NCBI GenBank assembly: GCA_029269845.2
Contig: CP149973.1
Span: 1,260,001 to 1,292,000, forward strand
Length of the DNA: 32,000 bases
Direction: 5' to 3'
DNA from: Opitutia bacterium KCR 482
Lineage (GTDB): Bacteria > Verrucomicrobiota > Verrucomicrobiia > Opitutales > Intestinicryptomonadaceae
Shown: positions 18,536 through 29,262 of the stretch, one piece after another
Numbering within the stretch: position 1 is the stretch's first letter
How the letters are laid out: each line of letters starts with the position of its first letter
Notes under the pieces: model-generated
Told to the model about the DNA's origin: nothing
Seen by the model: the letters and a program-made list of their open reading frames with translations, nothing else
Databases searched by the model: none
Program-made: the position numbers and the translations under genes

Positions 18536-19087
<552 letters not shown>

Positions 19088-19266
19088 GGCGCGAGCCGCG
19101 GGCGCGAGTCGCGCCTCCCTACGGAACTTCGTTCCTTTCTGTGATTATGCGGCGCGGGTATCCCCGCGCCTTTTGTCGTTCAGTCCCGTATTGGCTTCGC
19201 CAATTACTGGCGGCGGAATTATTCTACGGCAGAAAGAAACTTATCTAAATAGACGCGCTACGCGCG
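19088..19266. repeat. V-type repeat unit (179 bp) starting directly after the glnB stop
   Basis: Homologous to 27661-27832 and 27833-27998. Contains ccctacggaacttcgttcc, hairpin Vb ggcgcggg/cccgcgcc followed by tttt (19151-19174), hairpin Vc attggc-ttc-gccaat (19190-19204), and the 3' box aatagacgcgctacgcgcg. Confidence 0.85.
19151..19174 (+). terminator. Probable glnB terminator (hairpin Vb of the V repeat)
   Basis: 8-bp GC stem ggcgcggg / cccgcgcc, tatc loop, then tttt. Confidence 0.6.
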
Positions 19267-19277
19267 AAAAAATAAAA

Positions 19278-19311
19278 GCGGAAATCCCACAACTTGGAAT
19301 TTCCGCTTTTT
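19278..19311. terminator. A/T-flanked hairpin, terminator-like in both directions; conserved part of the composite repeat
   Basis: aaaa gcggaaatcc...ggaatttccgc ttttt. A homologous copy sits at 28011-28045. Confidence 0.55.
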
Positions 19312-19312
19312 G

Positions 19313-19655
19313 TACACTCAACTTTTCTCACAAAGCACTCTAAAAATCTTCGTGCGCAAGCACTGTAATTTTAGGCGCGTCAAAATGCCGTTCAGACGGC
19401 GGCTTTCACGCGCTTGCGGGTGCGTGGCGTACGCGGCTTTCCGCAAACATTAGACAACTGACGAAACGCCCCACCCAACTTTTATCCCAAAGCACTCTAA
19501 AAATCTTCCGCGCCGTGCGCTGTAATTTTAGGGGCGTCAAAATGCCCCTATAAGAGTGGCTTTGCGAGTGGCTCAGGGTGCGTGGCGTACTGACGTACGC
19601 GAGCAGTCTGAGACATTCGCGAAACGCTCTTAGAGGGGCGTTTTCACGCCCCGTG
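19313..19655. repeat. Two U-type repeat units: one with a truncated H3 arm and one complete
   Basis: Each unit starts with the box ctaaaaatcttc. Then follow a 4-bp hairpin (gtgc-gcaa-gcac or gcgc-cgt-gcgc), tgtaatttta, hairpin H2 (aggggc-gtcaaaat-gcccct), the box ataagagtggcttt, the long hairpin H3 (19564-19620), gaaacgc, and terminal hairpin H4 ggggcg-ttttca-cgcccc (19634-19651). Confidence 0.85.
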
Positions 19656-23944: not shown

Positions 23945-25606
23945 ATGACAAGACTCACCCTTGCAACGTTCTGCGCCGCAACGGCAATGCTGTCGTTCGG
24001 CTGCGCGTCGAGACCCGACGTTTCGAAAGTCGGCGACAACCGCGTGGAATACAAATTTGAGGACAACAAAAAGCCTCTCGTAAACCCCGGAATGGGCTGG
24101 GTGCACCACTACTATTCGGGCAGAACGGGCAACTACGGCTACTACCTGAAACCGTCCGACTCTCTCGACTGGTTTCCGGGGGCAAACGTGCAGTACATGC
24201 GCATTCCTTGGGCTTTCGTAGAACCCAAAGAGGGAGAATACAACTGGTCGGTTTTCGACACGCCCGCGCAACGCTATGTGCAAAGCGGCAAACAGTTCGC
24301 AATCCGCATAAACTGCTGCGAACACTGGATTCCGTGGGCGACACCCAAGTGGCTTAAAGACAAGGGCTGCAAAGGCGTACAGTTCACAGTCCGCCGCGGG
24401 CCCGACCCCAACGGCGCATGCTGGGAGCCCGACTACCTCGACCCCATTTATCTCGAACACCTCGAACGCCTCATAAAGAACCTCGCCGCCCGCTACGACG
24501 GCGACCCGAACATTGCGTTTATCGACATCGGCACTTTCGGACTCTGGGGCGAAGGCCACACGGGCGCAAGCAGCAGGCTTCCCCGCGACGTGCAAATAAA
24601 GGCGGTCAAGCTGCAAATCGACATCTACACGAAATACTTCAAAAAGACGCAACTCTGCATTAGCGACGACGTTGACGGCTGGAAGGAACAGGAAAAATTC
24701 CCCGTGCTCGACTACGCCCGCGCAAAGGGCGTCTCGCTCCGCGACGACTCGATTTTGGTTGACATTCCCGAAGCCCCGAACCCCAACAAAAAGGGGCACA
24801 AAAAGGCGTCGTGGTACCACGACGGACTCGCGGGAAAATACTGGCCGACAATGCCCGTAATCGTCGAACACGAGCACTACGGACTTTCAAAAGCCCGCGG
24901 CGCGTGGAAGGGCGAATGGCTCGAAAACAGCGTGGAAGCCTACCACTGCTCTTTCCTCTCAATCCACTGGTGGCCCGAACAGTTCTACAAGGAAAACAGG
25001 GAGTCAATCGAACGCATCAATTTGAGACTCGGATACAGACTCAATTTGAAGTCGCTCGAAATGCCGAAGTCGGTTGAAATCGGCGAACGCTTCCCCGTGC
25101 GCTTCGCGTGGGCAAACGTGGGCGTCGCGCCGTTCTACGCGGGCGGATACGCGACAATCACAATCAAGGACAAAAAAGGCGGCATAGTGGCGGTTCTCGT
25201 TGACGACACACTGAACCTCTCGACACTCCCCGTGGAGGAAAAGGGCAAAGAAAAAGTCGTTTCGAGCACAAAGACATTCAATATCGGCTTCCTCAACCCC
25301 AAGGAATTCTTCAACGAATTTACGCTCAATATGGAAAAGCGCGACGGCGCGGAATTCTACGGCGCGCCCGTAGTTCCCGCAACAAAGGCGGGCAAGTACG
25401 ACGTCTACGTCTCGGTGGGCATGCGCGACGGCACTCCGCAAATCGCGCTTCCGCTCGACCTGCCGACGGACGGACACAAACGCTATAAAATCGGAACAAT
25501 CCGCGTGAAAGAGCCGAGCGTCCCAGGGGTTGAAATCAAGACGCCCGAAAACGCGCCGCTCTCAACGATGGACTACGACGCCAGCGGCAAAAAATTCAAG
25601 TGGTAA
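23945..25606 (+). CDS. DUF4832/DUF4874-like putative glycoside hydrolase, lipoprotein
   Basis: AAGGAG SD. MTRLTLATFCAATAMLSFGCAS signal. NPGMGWVHHYY, GTFGLWGEGH and VIVEHEHYG resemble the TIM-barrel DUF4874/DUF4832 family as I recall it. Confidence 0.7.
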   Translation: MTRLTLATFCAATAMLSFGCASRPDVSKVGDNRVEYKFEDNKKPLVNPGMGWVHHYYSGRTGNYGYYLKPSDSLDWFPGANVQYMRIPWAFVEPKEGEYNWSVFDTPAQRYVQSGKQFAIRINCCEHWIPWATPKWLKDKGCKGVQFTVRRGPDPNGACWEPDYLDPIYLEHLERLIKNLAARYDGDPNIAFIDIGTFGLWGEGHTGASSRLPRDVQIKAVKLQIDIYTKYFKKTQLCISDDVDGWKEQEKFPVLDYARAKGVSLRDDSILVDIPEAPNPNKKGHKKASWYHDGLAGKYWPTMPVIVEHEHYGLSKARGAWKGEWLENSVEAYHCSFLSIHWWPEQFYKENRESIERINLRLGYRLNLKSLEMPKSVEIGERFPVRFAWANVGVAPFYAGGYATITIKDKKGGIVAVLVDDTLNLSTLPVEEKGKEKVVSSTKTFNIGFLNPKEFFNEFTLNMEKRDGAEFYGAPVVPATKAGKYDVYVSVGMRDGTPQIALPLDLPTDGHKRYKIGTIRVKEPSVPGVEIKTPENAPLSTMDYDASGKKFKW

Positions 25607-25651
25607 ACCCCGCCGCGCAAACAACACAACGCGCGACAAATAAAAACACAA

Positions 25652-25685
25652 ACCGCACTCCCAACGGAGCGCGGTTTTTTGTTTT
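25652..25685 (+). terminator. Rho-independent terminator after the DUF4832-like gene
   Basis: accgcactcc-caac-ggagcgcggt (10-bp stem with one A-C mismatch) followed by tttttt. Confidence 0.8.
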
Positions 25686-25743
25686 GAGAAAACGCCAGAG
25701 AGAAACAGCCCCTTTAGTGTTTTGCCTTTTCATAAAGCTAATA

Positions 25744-25909
25744 CACAAAAAATGCGGAAGCATTTTTTAAGAAAACGGCAATCCGCATACTAATCTAAAA
25801 AACTTCATGCGCGGCTGTGCGCGGGGAGACAGGCGGAAATTTTCGCGGTAGCGAAAACCGCCTTTTGGGGGCGGCAGCCCCCTCTGCGGCGTGCAGGCTC
25901 CAGCCTGCC
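25744..25909. repeat. R-type repeat, copy 1 (166 bp)
   Basis: Near-identical to 26018-26185. Contains the palindrome aaaaaatgc-ggaa-gcatttttt, the box ctaaaaaacttc, hairpin ggcgg..ttttcgc-ggta-gcgaaaa-ccgcc followed by tttt, hairpin gggggc-ggca-gccccc, and hairpin gcaggct-cc-agcctgc. The U-family box ataagagtggc follows at 25915-25925. Confidence 0.9.
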
Positions 25910-26017
25910 CCCAAGATAAGAGTGGCGCGGCTCGCGCCCAGATTCACAAGCCAAATCGGCACTTGGGCTATCCGCTAAGCCTCCGCTTATTCGTAAAACT
26001 TCCGCAAACCGCCAAGC

Positions 26018-26185
26018 CACAAAAAATGCGGACGCATTTTTTCAAAACGGCTATCCGCATACTAATCTAAAAAACTCCATGCGCGGCAGCTGTGCGCGGG
26101 GGGACAGGCGGGAATTTTCGCGGTAGCGAAAACCGCCTTTTGGGGGCGGTAGCCCCCTCTGTCGGCGTGCAGGCTCCAGCCTGCC
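26018..26185. repeat. R-type repeat, copy 2 (168 bp)
   Basis: Direct repeat of 25744-25909 with a 274-bp period. It differs by a few substitutions and by indels of 2, 3 and 1 nt. All hairpin stems are preserved; the changes fall in loops and linkers. Confidence 0.9.
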
Positions 26186-26224
26186 GCGCTGCTTAGGCTT
26201 GTCAAGCTGAACGAAGAAATGCGG

Positions 26225-26290
26225 CTTTGCGTAGCGAGGCGCAGGGAGCGTACTAACGTACGTGACCAAGCCGCAGCAAGCGAAACGCAT
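26225..26290. repeat. Degenerate H3-module remnant
   Basis: ggctttgcgtagcgaggcgcagggagcgtactaacgtacgtgacc...gcgaaacgc keeps the core cgtac-taac-gtacg and the flanking boxes ggctttgcg and gaaacgc, but the outer arms no longer pair. Confidence 0.6.
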
Positions 26291-26333
26291 TTATCCGTCA
26301 GCTTCACAAGCCCAAAAAAAGCTTGGGCAATGT

Positions 26334-27389
26334 CTAACCCTCGGAATCTTCTTCGCCGAGAGTCATGCCGCCGACGACCGTGGTGTTGCCCTCAATCGCC
26401 GCGCGTATCTTGTCGCAAACTTCGGGGTGCTGCATGAGGTACGCTTTCGCCGCCTCGCGCCCCTGCCCGATAAGCTCGCCGTCGTAGGAAATCCACGCGC
26501 CTTTCTTTTCGAGAATCTTCTGCTCAATGCCGAGGTCAATAAGGCTGCCCGTCTTGGAAATGCCTTCGTCGTACATAATGTCGAATTCGCATTCGGTAAA
26601 CGGCGGCGCAACCTTGTTTTTGACGACCTTGATTTTCGTGCGATTGCCCACAACCTTGCCCGACGGGTCTTTAATCTGCCCGATTCTGCGAATGTCGATG
26701 CGCACCGACGCAAAGAATTTCAGGGCGCGTCCGCCGGGGGTTGTTTCGGGGTTGCCGAACATCACCCCGATTTTCTCGCGGATTTGGTTTGTGAAGACGC
26801 AGATGCACTTGGTCTTGCTGATTGCCGCGGTGAGGCGGCGCATTGCCTGACTCATCATGCGCGCCTGCAAGCCCACGGTAGTGTCGCCCATCTGGCCTTC
26901 AAGCTCCTGACGCGAAACGAGCGCGGCGACGGAGTCTATCACAACGACGTCGATTGCGCCCGAACGGATAAGGGTTTCGGCGATGTTGAGGGCGTCCTCT
27001 CCGCATTCGGGCTGGGAAACCATGAGGTTTTCGAGATTGACGCCAACGACTTTCGCGTACTTGGGGTCGAGAGCGTGCTCGACGTCGATGAACACCGCGT
27101 TGCCGCCCCTTCGCTGCGCCTCTGCTATGAGCGAAAGACAGAGAGTGGTTTTTCCCGAAGATTCGGGCCCGTAAATTTCGACGATTCTGCCGCGCGGAAG
27201 CCCGCCGACGCCAAGCGCGAGGTCTATCGCTATCGAGCCCGTGCTTATGGTTTCGACATTCATCTTGAACGCTTCGCCGAGCCTGATGAGCGAGCCTTCC
27301 CCGAACTGCTTGTTTACCATGCCTAAGGCGGTTTCGAGAGCCTTGTCGTCCTTGTTTATAATAGTTATTGGTATTTTCTGTTTTGCCAT
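26334..27389 (-). CDS. recA: Recombinase RecA
   Basis: 351 aa. Walker A motif GPESSGKTT, plus [55 protein letters not shown]. Confidence 0.97.
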
Positions 27390-27579
27390 AATGTTATAAA
27401 TCCTGCTAAGATAAAAGGCGCAAAGCCTTAAAATTTAATCCGCAGGCAACCCTATTTAAAAAGCCGCAACGTGTCCACAAAAATGTTGATTAAAATTTTT
27501 TCTTGCAAGTCGGCGGGCGATGCGCATTAATTGTCGGCTTAAACGAGGAGACGCCGACGCATTCGGCGGCAACCCCGAT

Positions 27580-27655
27580 GGGGGCGTAGCTCAGCGGATA
27601 GAGCAGCGGTTTTCTAAACCGTTGGTCGAGGGTTCGAGTCCCCCCGCCCCTGCCA
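27580..27655 (+). tRNA. tRNA-Arg (anticodon TCT), CCA encoded
   Basis: Cloverleaf folded by hand. Acceptor gggggcg/cgcccct (one G-U pair), D arm gctc...gagc, anticodon stem gcggt/accgt with loop tttctaa (TCT at 27613-27615), T arm gaggg-ttcgagt-ccccc, discriminator g, then cca. Total 76 nt. Confidence 0.9.
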
Positions 27656-27660
27656 TTTAA

Positions 27661-27998
27661 CGCACAGGCGCAAGGTGCGCCACCCTACGGAACTTCGTTC
27701 CTTATGATGATTATGCGCGGCAAGTATACTTGCCGCTTTCCCCGATTAGTTCGTATTGACTTCGCCAATTACTCGCGTTGGGAAATTGCATACATAAGAA
27801 AGAAACCAATAAAAATAGACGCGCTACGCGCGGGCGCGAGCCGCGCCGGTCGTCGGAGTTTCGCCCCTTTCTGTAATAATGCGGCGCGGCTATAACCGCG
27901 CCTTTTCTGTATCAGTTCGTATTGCCTACGGCAATTACTGGCGTTGGGATATGCGATATTTAACGAAGAAACCAATTAAAATAGACGCGCTACGCGCG
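27661..27998. repeat. Two tandem V-type repeat units (27661-27832 and 27833-27998) directly after tRNA-Arg
   Basis: Homologous to 19088-19266. Vb hairpins are gcggcaag-tata-cttgccgc (27717-27736) and ggcgcgg-ctataa-ccgcgcc followed by tttt (27883-27906). Vc hairpins are attgac-ttc-gccaat (27755-27769) and attgcc-tac-ggcaat (27921-27935). Both units end in aatagacgcgctacgcgcg. Confidence 0.88.
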
Positions 27999-28010
27999 GA
28001 AAAAGAAAAA

Positions 28011-28045
28011 GCGGAAATCCGCAAACATGGATTCTCCGCTTTTTT
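28011..28045. terminator. A/T-flanked hairpin homologous to 19278-19311
   Basis: gaaaaa gcggaaatcc...ggattctccgc tttttt. Confidence 0.5.
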
Positions 28046-28668
28046 GTAAACTCTTCTTTTCTCCCAGCGCATTCTAAAAATCTTCGTGCGTCTGCACTGT
28101 AATTTTAGGCGCGTTAGAGTGCCGTTCAGGCGGCGGCTTTCACGCACAGGCAGGGCGCGTGGCGTACTTTCGTACGCGAGCGGTCTGACTGTGCGGGGAA
28201 ACGCCGCATCAACGGTGCTATAACGCGCCGCCTTTAGGGGCGTCAAAATGCCCCTATAAGAGTGGCTTTGCGAGTGGCTCAGGGTACGTGGCGTACTAAC
28301 GTACGCGAGCAGTCTGAGACACTCGCGAAACGCCCTACTTAACTTTTATCCCAGCGCAACTTAAAAATCTTCCGCGCCGTGCGCTCACTTGTTAGGCGCG
28401 TCAAAGTGCTTTCATAAGGGTGGCTTTCCTGTGCGCACAGGGCGCGTGGCGTACTTTCGTACGCGAGCGGTCTGGGCGCACAGGGAAACGCCCTTAGGGA
28501 AGTGCTTTCACGCGCCGTCTAAACGCCATGCGCTGTAATTTTAGGGGCGTCAAAATGCCCCTATAAGAGTGACTTTGCGAGTGGCTCAGGGTGCGTGGCG
28601 TACTAACGTACGCGAGCAGTCTGAGACACTCGCGAAACGCTGTTAGAGGGGCATTTTCACGCCCCGTC
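28046..28668. repeat. Array of about four U-type repeat units containing four complete H3 hairpins
   Basis: H3 copies lie at 28143-28195, 28270-28326, 28428-28484 and 28577-28633. H2 and the box ataagagtg[ga]c occur at 28236-28266 and 28543-28572. The ctaaaaatcttc or cttaaaaatcttc boxes lie at 28073-28084 and 28361-28373. The array ends in H4 ggggca-ttttca-cgcccc (28648-28665), 3 nt from the hisB stop. Confidence 0.88.
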
Positions 28669-29262
28669 TCAGATGGAGCCTTTTGTTGAGGGTATATTCG
28701 CGCCGCGGCGGGGGTCTTTTGCAACCGACATCGACAGCGCCTTTGCAAAGCACTTGAACGCGCCCTCCGCGATGTGGTGCGGTTCGTCGCCGTATTCAAG
28801 CTTGATGTGGAGGTTTGCGCCCGCCTCGTTGGCGAACGCCTGAAAGAACTCGCGGCAAAGCGACACGTTGAAATCGCGCACGCGGGCGTCGAAGCTGCCC
28901 AAATTGTAGACAAGAATCGGTCTGTTCGAGAGGTCTATTACCGCGCGGACAAGCACTTCGTCCATGGGGAGAATGAAGAAGCCGTAGCGGTTCATGCCCG
29001 CCTTGTCGCCGACCGCCTTTTTCACCGCCTGACCGAGCACAATGCCGACGTCCTCAACCGTGTGGTGGTAGTCGATGTCGATGTCGCCGACCGCCTTGAT
29101 TTTGAGGTCGAAAAGCCCGTGCCGCGCGAAAAGTTCGAGCATGTGGTTAAAGAACGGAATGCCCGTGTCGATTTCGTAGTTTCCCGCGCCGTCGAGGTTT
29201 ATTTCAAGCTCGATTTGCGTTTCCTTTGTGTTGCGGACTATTTTTGCGCTGCGTTGATTCAT
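28669..29262 (-). CDS. hisB: Imidazoleglycerol-phosphate dehydratase
   Basis: 197 aa. [46 protein letters not shown] and [16 protein letters not shown] are classic IGPD motifs. AGGAGAG SD upstream. Confidence 0.95.

Follow-up and report, generated by a model that had tools for sequence, protein, structure and literature searches.

Long, structure-conserved hairpins at gene ends, arrayed in tandem in an Opitutia bacterium, and their relatives in other bacteria and archaea

The window analysed here is a stretch of 32,000 nucleotides of Opitutia bacterium KCR 482 (contig CP149973.1, positions 1,260,001 to 1,292,000 of the forward strand), and the subject is a tandem array of repeats, termed H units, in the 1.28-kb spacer that runs from a tRNA-Arg gene (27580-27655, + strand) to the stop codon of hisB on the - strand. 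The array was interpreted, at a probability of roughly 0.4, as part of a structure-selected family of imperfect-palindrome hairpins of about 100-125 nt that stand at gene ends, resemble REP/REPIN palindromes and the Tuberculosis Rho-independent terminator (TRIT), and may act in cis at the RNA level, possibly as terminators or insulators. The arms of the units covary, the units lie at stop codons in one orientation, their number differs among strains, and their apex recurs in several phyla and in archaea. REP, BIME and TRIT palindromes are abundant and of disputed function, and each of these families has so far been treated as lineage-specific. The repeat type of the window is common to the metagenome-assembled genomes (MAGs) Opitutia bacterium UBA4654, Candidatus Merdousia and Opitutales (all Verrucomicrobiota), and the unchanged RecA and HisB of the window, which was assigned to an uncultured bacterium of the human gut, are present on many gut-metagenome scaffolds in ENA.

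An earlier interpretation made from the letters alone (the sequence-only reading) had described a hairpin, H3, in five complete copies at 19564-19620, 28143-28195, 28270-28326, 28428-28484 and 28577-28633, and these coordinates were confirmed. Its layout, with a 6-bp apical helix, a tetraloop, a 3x2 internal loop (GUG/GA), a 3-bp helix and a 2x2 internal loop (GG/GU), was borne out, and the inner helices were found in versions that differ among copies and are each self-complementary. The description was correct as far as it went and incomplete beyond that, H3 being only the apical third of a hairpin of 122 nt. The segments named H1 and H4 are the outer arms of this hairpin, which pair and covary (28108-28135 with 28202-28229 and 28544-28569 with 28640-28665, for instance). 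Folding gave a single imperfect hairpin of 122 nt for every unit, with a minimum free energy (MFE) of -84.6 to -87.6 kcal/mol and z-scores of -7 to -10. The hairpin is built in three tiers (outer, middle and inner stems) on a base of GGSGCG/CGCSCC, and its arms hold small local palindromes, GGGGC-N8-GCCCC, in inverted orientation. The + strand holds five occurrences of the apical core, GTGGCGTAC-N4-GTACGCGAG; dinucleotide shuffles expect 0.05, and none of 100 shuffles reached five. A covariance model, R1, was built from 26 distinct copies (alignment A2: the window, six other strains and related Opitutales MAGs) and was scanned over the window and later over loci of other phyla. In the window it matched four complete units (starting at 19531, 28108, 28395 and 28544; 130-139 bits), a unit without its right arm (28237), and two copies missing from the earlier list, namely a diverged full unit (26196-26314) and a fragment (19374-19416). 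All R1 matches in the window lay on the + strand, where the scores were about twice those on the - strand. The units fall at three loci, the gene ends of hisB, of a CitMHS transporter gene and of recA, and all copies are intergenic. The features are as follows.

28108-28229, + strand: U1, complete 122-nt hairpin with inner stem CGCACAG/CTGTGCG and H3 28143-28195 as its top; MFE -84.9 kcal/mol, z -7.2, 129.8 bits.
28237-28335, + strand: U2, left outer arm, H3 (28270-28326) and GAAACGCC, with a P module in place of the right outer arm; R1 match 28237-28362, 87 bits.
28395-28516, + strand: U3, complete hairpin with inner stem CCTGTGCGC/GCGCACAGG; the same unit adjoins the hisB stop codon in 10 other strains.
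28517-28543, + strand: linker between U3 and U4, GTCTAAACGCCATGCGCTGTAATTTTA, matching the 3' part of the P module.
28544-28665, + strand: U4, complete hairpin with inner stem GCGAGTG/CACTCGC; MFE -84.6 kcal/mol, z -9.6; in the window only, missing from 10 other strains.
28669-28671, - strand: hisB stop codon (TGA), 3 nt off the base of U4.
19531-19652, + strand: H unit of the second locus, with H3 19564-19620; 139 bits; fixed in all strains compared.
19644-19646, - strand: stop codon of the CitMHS open reading frame (ORF), inside the 3' arm of the 19531-19652 unit.
19374-19470, + strand: rearranged half unit, a left arm and GGGTGCGTGGCGTAC fused to GCGGCTTTCCGCAAAC..GAAACGCC, a recombination derivative of two units seen in other strains.
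26196-26314, + strand: diverged full-length unit with apex GGGAGCGTAC-TAAC-GTACGTGACC; R1 55 bits, E 5e-12.
19087-19260, 27660-27825 and 27826-27991: A modules of about 166 nt, starting exactly at the glnB stop codon TAG (19085-19087, + strand) or just 3' of tRNA-Arg.
28005-28046, - strand: T module, hairpin GCGGAAATCC..GGATTCTCCGC with A and T runs on both sides, terminator-like on the - strand; second copy at 19274-19310.
28056-28107: P module, CTTTTCTCCCAGCGCA..TCTAAAAATCTTC, with a GC hairpin at 28086-28097, then TGTAATTTTA; second copy at 28343-28394.

Selection on a folded strand, as opposed to drift of duplicated copies, had been proposed from fixed internal loops combined with covarying helices, and the larger alignment upholds it. 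In A2, 96.1% of the cells were standard-paired, compared with 81% after shuffling and at most 50% with the partners slid; both sides had changed at 25 of the 44 pairs, and none of 500 shuffles reached the observed values. Each tier of the stem exists in several mutually compensated versions, with constant loops (GUG/GA, GG/GU, the GGCUUU/GAAACGC region and a C.C mismatch). The apical helix also has natural variants, GCGUGC/GCACGC, GUGUGC/GCACAC, GCAUAC/GUAUGU, GUGUAC/GUACAU and GCGUAU/AUACGC. An independent set was obtained by scanning soil and gut metagenomes with apical pair 5 left free (R...Y). In 93 independent soil and gut elements with the family context, this pair was G-C in about 75 and A-U in about 17, G.U in 1 and A.C in none, and the metagenome matches with a mismatch at pair 5 were otherwise random sequence. 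A reading of GCGTAC-N4-GTACGC as the site of a dimeric protein on double-stranded DNA was rejected because the half-sites change only together; the compensation at pair 5 rules out such a site and supports a folded strand. Random drift of segmental duplications, with arms complementary only through having been copied together and with no function, is very improbable and already largely refuted. It can draw on several near-identical copies, on arrays that change by unequal recombination and on the existence of chimeric, mismatched units. It does not fit subfamilies that differ at the 25 pairs with complementarity and internal loops kept, long-standing mismatches that are all of G.U type on one strand, an apex and architecture common to distant phyla and archaea, or the retention of orthologous copies. 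The sequence-only reading had stated that recent segmental duplications with random divergence would speak against it; some copies are indeed recent (28544 and 19531 are about 95% identical), and others form old, compensated subfamilies.

The wobble evidence for strand had earlier been judged mixed, a judgement that did not survive consideration of the whole hairpin, in which G.U outnumbers A.C by 120 to 9 cells when the + strand is read, with the limit that these wobble counts rest on few independent events. Among the frequent or invariant mismatched positions of A2, six were of G.U type on the + strand and none the reverse, and rare variants were balanced (10 and 9 positions). The + strand of the H units also folded better than the opposite strand, by about 10-14 kcal/mol. 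The Coriobacteriia showed the same bias of G.U over A.C, at 50 against 28.

The position of the hairpin relative to genes was examined in an exact-core scan that used one genome per species and gave at least 120 loci among the matches listed. In 80 of the 121 genome instances among these matches, an opposite-strand ORF of at least 120 aa ended within 120 nt on the 3' side of the core, and the distance from stop codon to core had a sharp peak at 36-40 nt, where the hairpin has its base. Under stricter filters the nearest long gene on the 3' side was antisense in 36 cases and sense in 5, and the 5' side was unbiased. The same rule held for 43 of 55 instances in the soil metagenome set, with the peak at 35-41 nt. 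The strand that carries the GUG/GA apex is antisense to the abutting gene, in a fixed orientation that was also kept after 5S rRNA (locus L078) and tRNA genes (L109, L126). In archaea the conserved end of the element, ...AAAATTA, itself provides the TAA stop codon. The genes upstream are diverse housekeeping genes (EF-Tu/EF-1a, EF-G, guaA, RNR and recA/RadA). A unit at fusA-tuf was kept in 12 Solirubrobacterales species, better than the adjoining spacer and with compensated changes, and the stop codon is paired within its stem. The diverged unit 26196-26314 of the window, about 20 nt from the recA stop codon (26334-26336), was likewise kept in other strains and in UBA4654 with compensated changes. 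A linked protein was sought by clustering neighbouring ORFs and was set aside, the clusters being only EF-Tu/EF-G and other housekeeping genes. As separate observations, guaA followed by the element was seen both in an Opitutales MAG (L072:133-1770) and in soil Actinomycetota contigs (L150, L157, L175), and translational GTPase genes (EF-G, EF-1a) followed by the element were seen in bacteria and in archaea, where about one such coincidence is expected by chance.

The nearest described behaviour is that of TRIT in Mycobacterium, a sequence-conserved hairpin present in 147 copies with a narrow distribution around the stop codon, which was reported as Mycobacterium-restricted and for which a factor that binds a double-stranded motif was inferred (PMC3152330). 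Both elements are multi-copy, conserved in sequence and structure, largely palindromic, tight at gene termini and often overlapping the stop codon (PMC3152330), and the narrow placement at the stop codon is found in the H family at both of the distance peaks given above. Compared by description, the H family differs in that it spans several phyla and archaea, is 100-125 nt long, has an asymmetric, polar apex and forms tandem or mosaic arrays. On the favoured reading, each unit would lie directly against a stop codon in one orientation, in which the GUG/GA strand of the apex runs antisense to the gene. The hairpin would stand in the 3' untranslated region of the mRNA of the abutting gene, upstream of a U-tract terminator provided by the T module, since a hairpin between the stop codon and T becomes part of the 3' end of that mRNA. 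To polymerases from the opposite direction it may be a very stable barrier, in the strand of its best fold, and it would in this way define and insulate the gene end in cis. The ancestral state in the Opitutales lineage would be one unit per gene end within a mosaic of A, T, P and H modules between convergent genes, from which arrays may grow or shrink through recombination between units and occasionally through a new unit inserted beside an old one. Such elements would bear on gene termination and insulation in organisms without canonical terminators, and on the mobility of palindromes of this kind.

The mosaic has a recurring order at the three window loci and at about 20 loci of related MAGs: it opens with the stop codon of a + strand gene, continues through A, T, P and one or more H units, and closes with GT(T/C)A, where a - strand gene has its stop codon. 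It fills convergent intergenic regions from stop codon to stop codon. The A module, which precedes T-P-H in loci of Opitutia UBA4654 too, carries terminator-like hairpins on the + strand, GGCGCGG..CCGCGCC followed by TTTT (19151-19170 and 27883-27902). The T hairpin (GCGGAAATCC..GGATTTCCGC), which is distal to H when the strand of the gene is read, is accompanied by a U run on the - strand. Its wobble pairs (24-32 cells against 3, in 11-13 true copies) and its better fold are also on the - strand; as this preference is opposite to that of the adjacent H unit, it argues against a local mutational bias. Transcripts of the - strand, having passed through H and P, are terminated at the T module. 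The P module looks like a weak bidirectional terminator because its GC hairpin, which covaries, stands between an A-rich tract on the 5' side and a T-rich tract on the 3' side. Classical intrinsic terminators resemble the H units in being GC-rich hairpins just past a gene, with A/U-run flanks in Merdousia-type relatives, and differ in having stems of 5-15 bp against 45-50 bp and in lacking conserved loops and a conserved apex; they also have the U run that the window copies lack. Such a run accompanies the T module and, in Merdousia and other Opitutales, the big hairpin itself, which is bordered by A and U runs.

The modules also bear on whether the units could be independent small RNA (sRNA) genes, transcribed on the + strand from P as a promoter, whose rod-like RNA would bind or sequester a protein through its apex, as 4.5S or CsrB RNA does, or would act as a cis-antisense RNA on the 3' untranslated region of the convergent gene. 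This is quite improbable. The + strand has the wobbles and the better fold, and the opposite preference of the T hairpin speaks against an artefact of mutation; the internal loops are rich in purines, as in RNA motifs (GUG/GA, GG/GU and AGGACGCAG on both arms), and P is placed exactly on the 5' side of each hairpin, its TGTAAT lying some 7 nt ahead of the hairpin base. A promoter reading of P was nevertheless rejected: a scan for sigma-70-like promoters over 27400-28800 returned no site, the -10-like hexamer varies among P copies (TCACTTGTTAG, TCACTATTCAG), and P holds the terminator-like, covarying hairpin with A and U tracts. No terminator lies 3' of the H hairpin, so that transcription would enter the next gene antisense, and a stand-alone gene with its own promoter and terminator on the folding strand was not found at the array. 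Archaeal and Solirubrobacterales copies are without a conserved upstream promoter, and a distribution in dozens of scattered copies, every one tied to a stop codon, would not suit a dedicated sRNA gene. For comparison with P, a likely promoter of tRNA-Arg, TTGCAA-N17-ATTAAT after an AT-rich tract, was seen by eye in 27470-27580.

Several results weigh against the favoured reading of a cis-acting gene-end hairpin. In Opitutales it is on the strand antisense to the gene that the fold of the hairpin is better preserved, and the scan of 27400-28800 gave no promoter for that antisense strand, towards which P faces as an apparent terminator. The H units of the window are without an adjacent U run on either strand, and a consensus scan called none of them a terminator. 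A universal folding strand was not supported, since the bias is strong in Opitutales, present in Coriobacteriia, and absent or reversed in archaea (31 G.U against 39 A.C) and in soil Actinomycetota (90 against 125). Term-seq of TRIT showed little overlap with real 3' ends, so that "terminator" may be the wrong function for this class of gene-end hairpins too. Chimeric units with non-complementary arms (L056, L254) indicate that distal units are not all under selection. Finally, stability alone cannot account for the conservation of the apex across phyla.

Among the matches listed, the core tops long hairpins in Solirubrobacterales and other Actinomycetota, in Coriobacteriia (Gordonibacter, Eggerthellaceae), in Fibrobacter, in a Rickettsiales MAG, a Lactobacillales MAG and a Thermomonas MAG, and in DPANN archaea (Woese-, Pace- and Nanoarchaeota), the archaeal identity of the loci being supported by EF-1a and Gins51 neighbours. 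Several of the genomes outside Opitutales carry more than one copy. The arms are unrelated across lineages and complementary in every one; one polar apical motif recurs on otherwise unrelated hairpins from Verrucomicrobiota, Actinomycetota, Coriobacteriia, Fibrobacter and DPANN archaea. In the last four of these groups, too, the hairpins stand about 38 nt from a stop codon and keep the orientation seen in Opitutales. R1, although trained on Opitutales, aligned full-length to elements of Actinomycetota, Gordonibacter, Thermomonas and archaea (E 5e-10 to 3e-5) and found additional copies with variant apexes in other lineages. Tandem copies in the same orientation, spaced by about 80-115 nt, were found at L152 (4573, 4652), L175 (5875, 5974), L206 (13043, 13138) and L028 (286-387, 402-483); as these are from Actinomycetota and Coriobacteriia, soil contigs included, the formation of arrays is not peculiar to Opitutales. 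Two archaeal subtypes were noted, one in L015, L077, L090, L097 and L126 and the other in L037, L045, L116 and others. In one of them the second internal loop (CAAGGCG / CAACGMAG) is strand-swapped relative to the apex (UCGCAGCG / ACCAAGA), and in both the polarity of the apex towards the gene is unchanged.

The sequence-only reading had not recognised any named RNA family, and a check against Rfam 15 agreed. At the gathering score the window matched only tRNA-Arg, at E<=10 nothing relevant was found over 25600-28750, 18 loci from other phyla gave no match, and L038 and L037 gave none at E<=10. Kink-turn, hammerhead and hairpin-ribozyme loop readings were rejected, as the G.A/A.G register, the CUGANGA box and the loop sizes do not fit; the GUC beside the 2x2 loop is conserved only within Opitutales. 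In a literature search for the core string only primers and a 23S rDNA meganuclease target matched. Without its loop and the 5' strand of the apical stem, the apex (28595-28616, for example) reads GUG-GUACGC-GAG, which is identical to 23S rRNA at about 2567-2578 (E. coli numbering); this 12-mer identity is probably a coincidence. A somewhat unlikely proposal is that the asymmetric apex, C-G(U/C)G-[6-bp helix]-N4-[helix]-(G/A)A-G on a long rod, is a recognition module for a widely distributed or horizontally spread putative factor and serves as a polar mark of gene ends in Bacteria and Archaea. If so, the elements would constitute a new class of gene-end element, neither classical terminator, REP nor attC, and the Opitutales arrays would be its proliferated form.

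The array was compared at hisB between the window and 10 other strains, and across strains of the gut species the number of units per locus ranged from 1 to 4. A U3-type unit adjoins hisB in all 10 other strains, and the distal units vary; the smallest array there is tRNA-A-T-P-H, of 687 nt, other strains have two or three units, and one strain has a U1/U2 chimera from recombination at the core. The window alone has U4 and a linker of 27 nt as an insertion that separates U3 from the hisB stop codon (span 28524-28668), without homology on the gene side and with a 2-nt TC/GA duplication at the junction. At glnB the gene-proximal unit is fixed in all strains, and distal units differ by deletions and duplications. 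The ends of these changes lie in repeated modules, which suggests that the arrays change mostly by homologous recombination, and at least one event looks like a true insertion. Chimeric units whose inner stems come from different subfamilies and are unpaired were seen at L254 (about position 745 of the array), L056:1094-1217 and L092:226-349; such units arise by recombination at the conserved core. The strain series of the gut species constitutes a natural experiment for effects on the flanking genes.

The insertion also raises the question of mobile DNA. REP families lie mostly downstream of ORFs, form mosaics with other motifs and have a GT(A/G)G head, and they have been proposed to act in termination, mRNA stabilisation and mobility (PMC3733652). 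H units resemble REP, REPIN and BIME elements as extragenic palindromes 3' of ORFs between tandem or convergent genes, in mosaic clusters and larger hairpins (PMC3733652), and the family is high-copy, extragenic and dispersed in the same way. The apex reads C-GTGG-CGTAC-N4-GTACG-CGAG, with GTAG variants, but it sits atop a 122-nt hairpin and is not free-standing. REPs, moreover, are 20-40 nt long, lineage-specific and usually alternating, whereas H is a 122-nt hairpin in direct orientation with an apex found across phyla, and no RAYT gene was found among the genes neighbouring H copies. It is nonetheless conceivable, if unlikely, that the units are non-autonomous REPIN- or PATE-like elements mobilised, in the form of folded single-stranded DNA, by a HUH/Y1 enzyme (RAYT, IS200/IS605-type) or another enzyme acting in trans, which would recognise the apical hairpin with its REP-head-like GT(G/A)G on the 5' side, the effects at gene ends being a by-product. 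Such movement would accord with the many dispersed copies (the Opitutia UBA4654 MAG has the exact core on at least 19 contigs, often at their ends), with near-identical unlinked copies (19531 and 28544), with the insertion of a unit at hisB, next to the stop codon and on the gene side of an older unit, unique among 11 strains, and with comparable head-to-tail junctions elsewhere. It would also accord with a one-strand preference that tolerates G.T, as expected for a DNA hairpin, with the inverted, REPIN-like palindromes in the arms, with the patchy distribution over phyla, suggesting horizontal transfer, and with the reported richness of Opitutus terrae in GTAG REPs (PMC3733652).

Against mobility, orthologous copies are kept across species, and homologous recombination accounts for most of the changes in the arrays. 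The genes next to 60 copies included no transposase, Y1 or other; in 22 Opitutales loci (102 ORFs), no transposase was among the 25 most frequent of 97 Pfam families; and clustering of the neighbouring ORFs at about 240 loci gave no transposase, no integrase cluster and no recurrent accessory gene. Neither 2.9 million viral contigs nor plasmids gave a match, and the element is therefore carried by neither phages nor plasmids. For genes such as fusA/tuf, the strand that folds better is the one read as template in transcription and would, if these genes are co-directional, be the leading-strand template, whereas IS200/IS605 enzymes use the lagging-strand template. GC skew was tried for the direction of replication in the window and was uninformative, as it follows gene orientation. 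The centre of the element is also its best conserved part, the reverse of miniature inverted-repeat transposable elements: their conserved ends and variable centre were not seen, the one clean insertion shows only the 2-nt TC repeat, and presence/absence polymorphism is the trait that is shared. ERIC and Correia (NEMIS) elements, imperfect palindromes some 100-150 bp long, lie in transcribed intergenic regions, form long RNA hairpins and vary in copy number among strains. H units are likewise long imperfect palindromes that can overlap stop codons and vary in number among strains, but ERIC and Correia elements have conserved terminal inverted repeats, target-site duplications and a variable centre.

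Sites of attC type, hairpins folded from the bottom strand at the 3' ends of ORFs for a tyrosine recombinase, as in integron cassettes, are an extremely improbable, disfavoured explanation. attC sites of 57-141 nt stand at or over the stop codon in a fixed orientation, fold antisense to the ORF and keep unpaired bases, and the H units share this placement, this functional fold, a similar length and the conservation of structure and unpaired bases. The R''/R' core sites (RYYYAAC/GTTRRRY) are missing from the base of the H units, however; of about 12 copies, only 1 has a flanking GT(T/C)A compatible with GTTRRRY. H units vary at the base and are conserved at the apex, where attC sites do the reverse; the genes upstream of H units are syntenic core genes and not cassettes; and no integron integrase lies near the examined loci.

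Between a GH42 gene and recA, two direct repeats of about 275 nt were also noted (25737-25886 and 26011-26161), with segments 84-95% identical and small hairpins followed by T runs; they belong to a family distinct from H.

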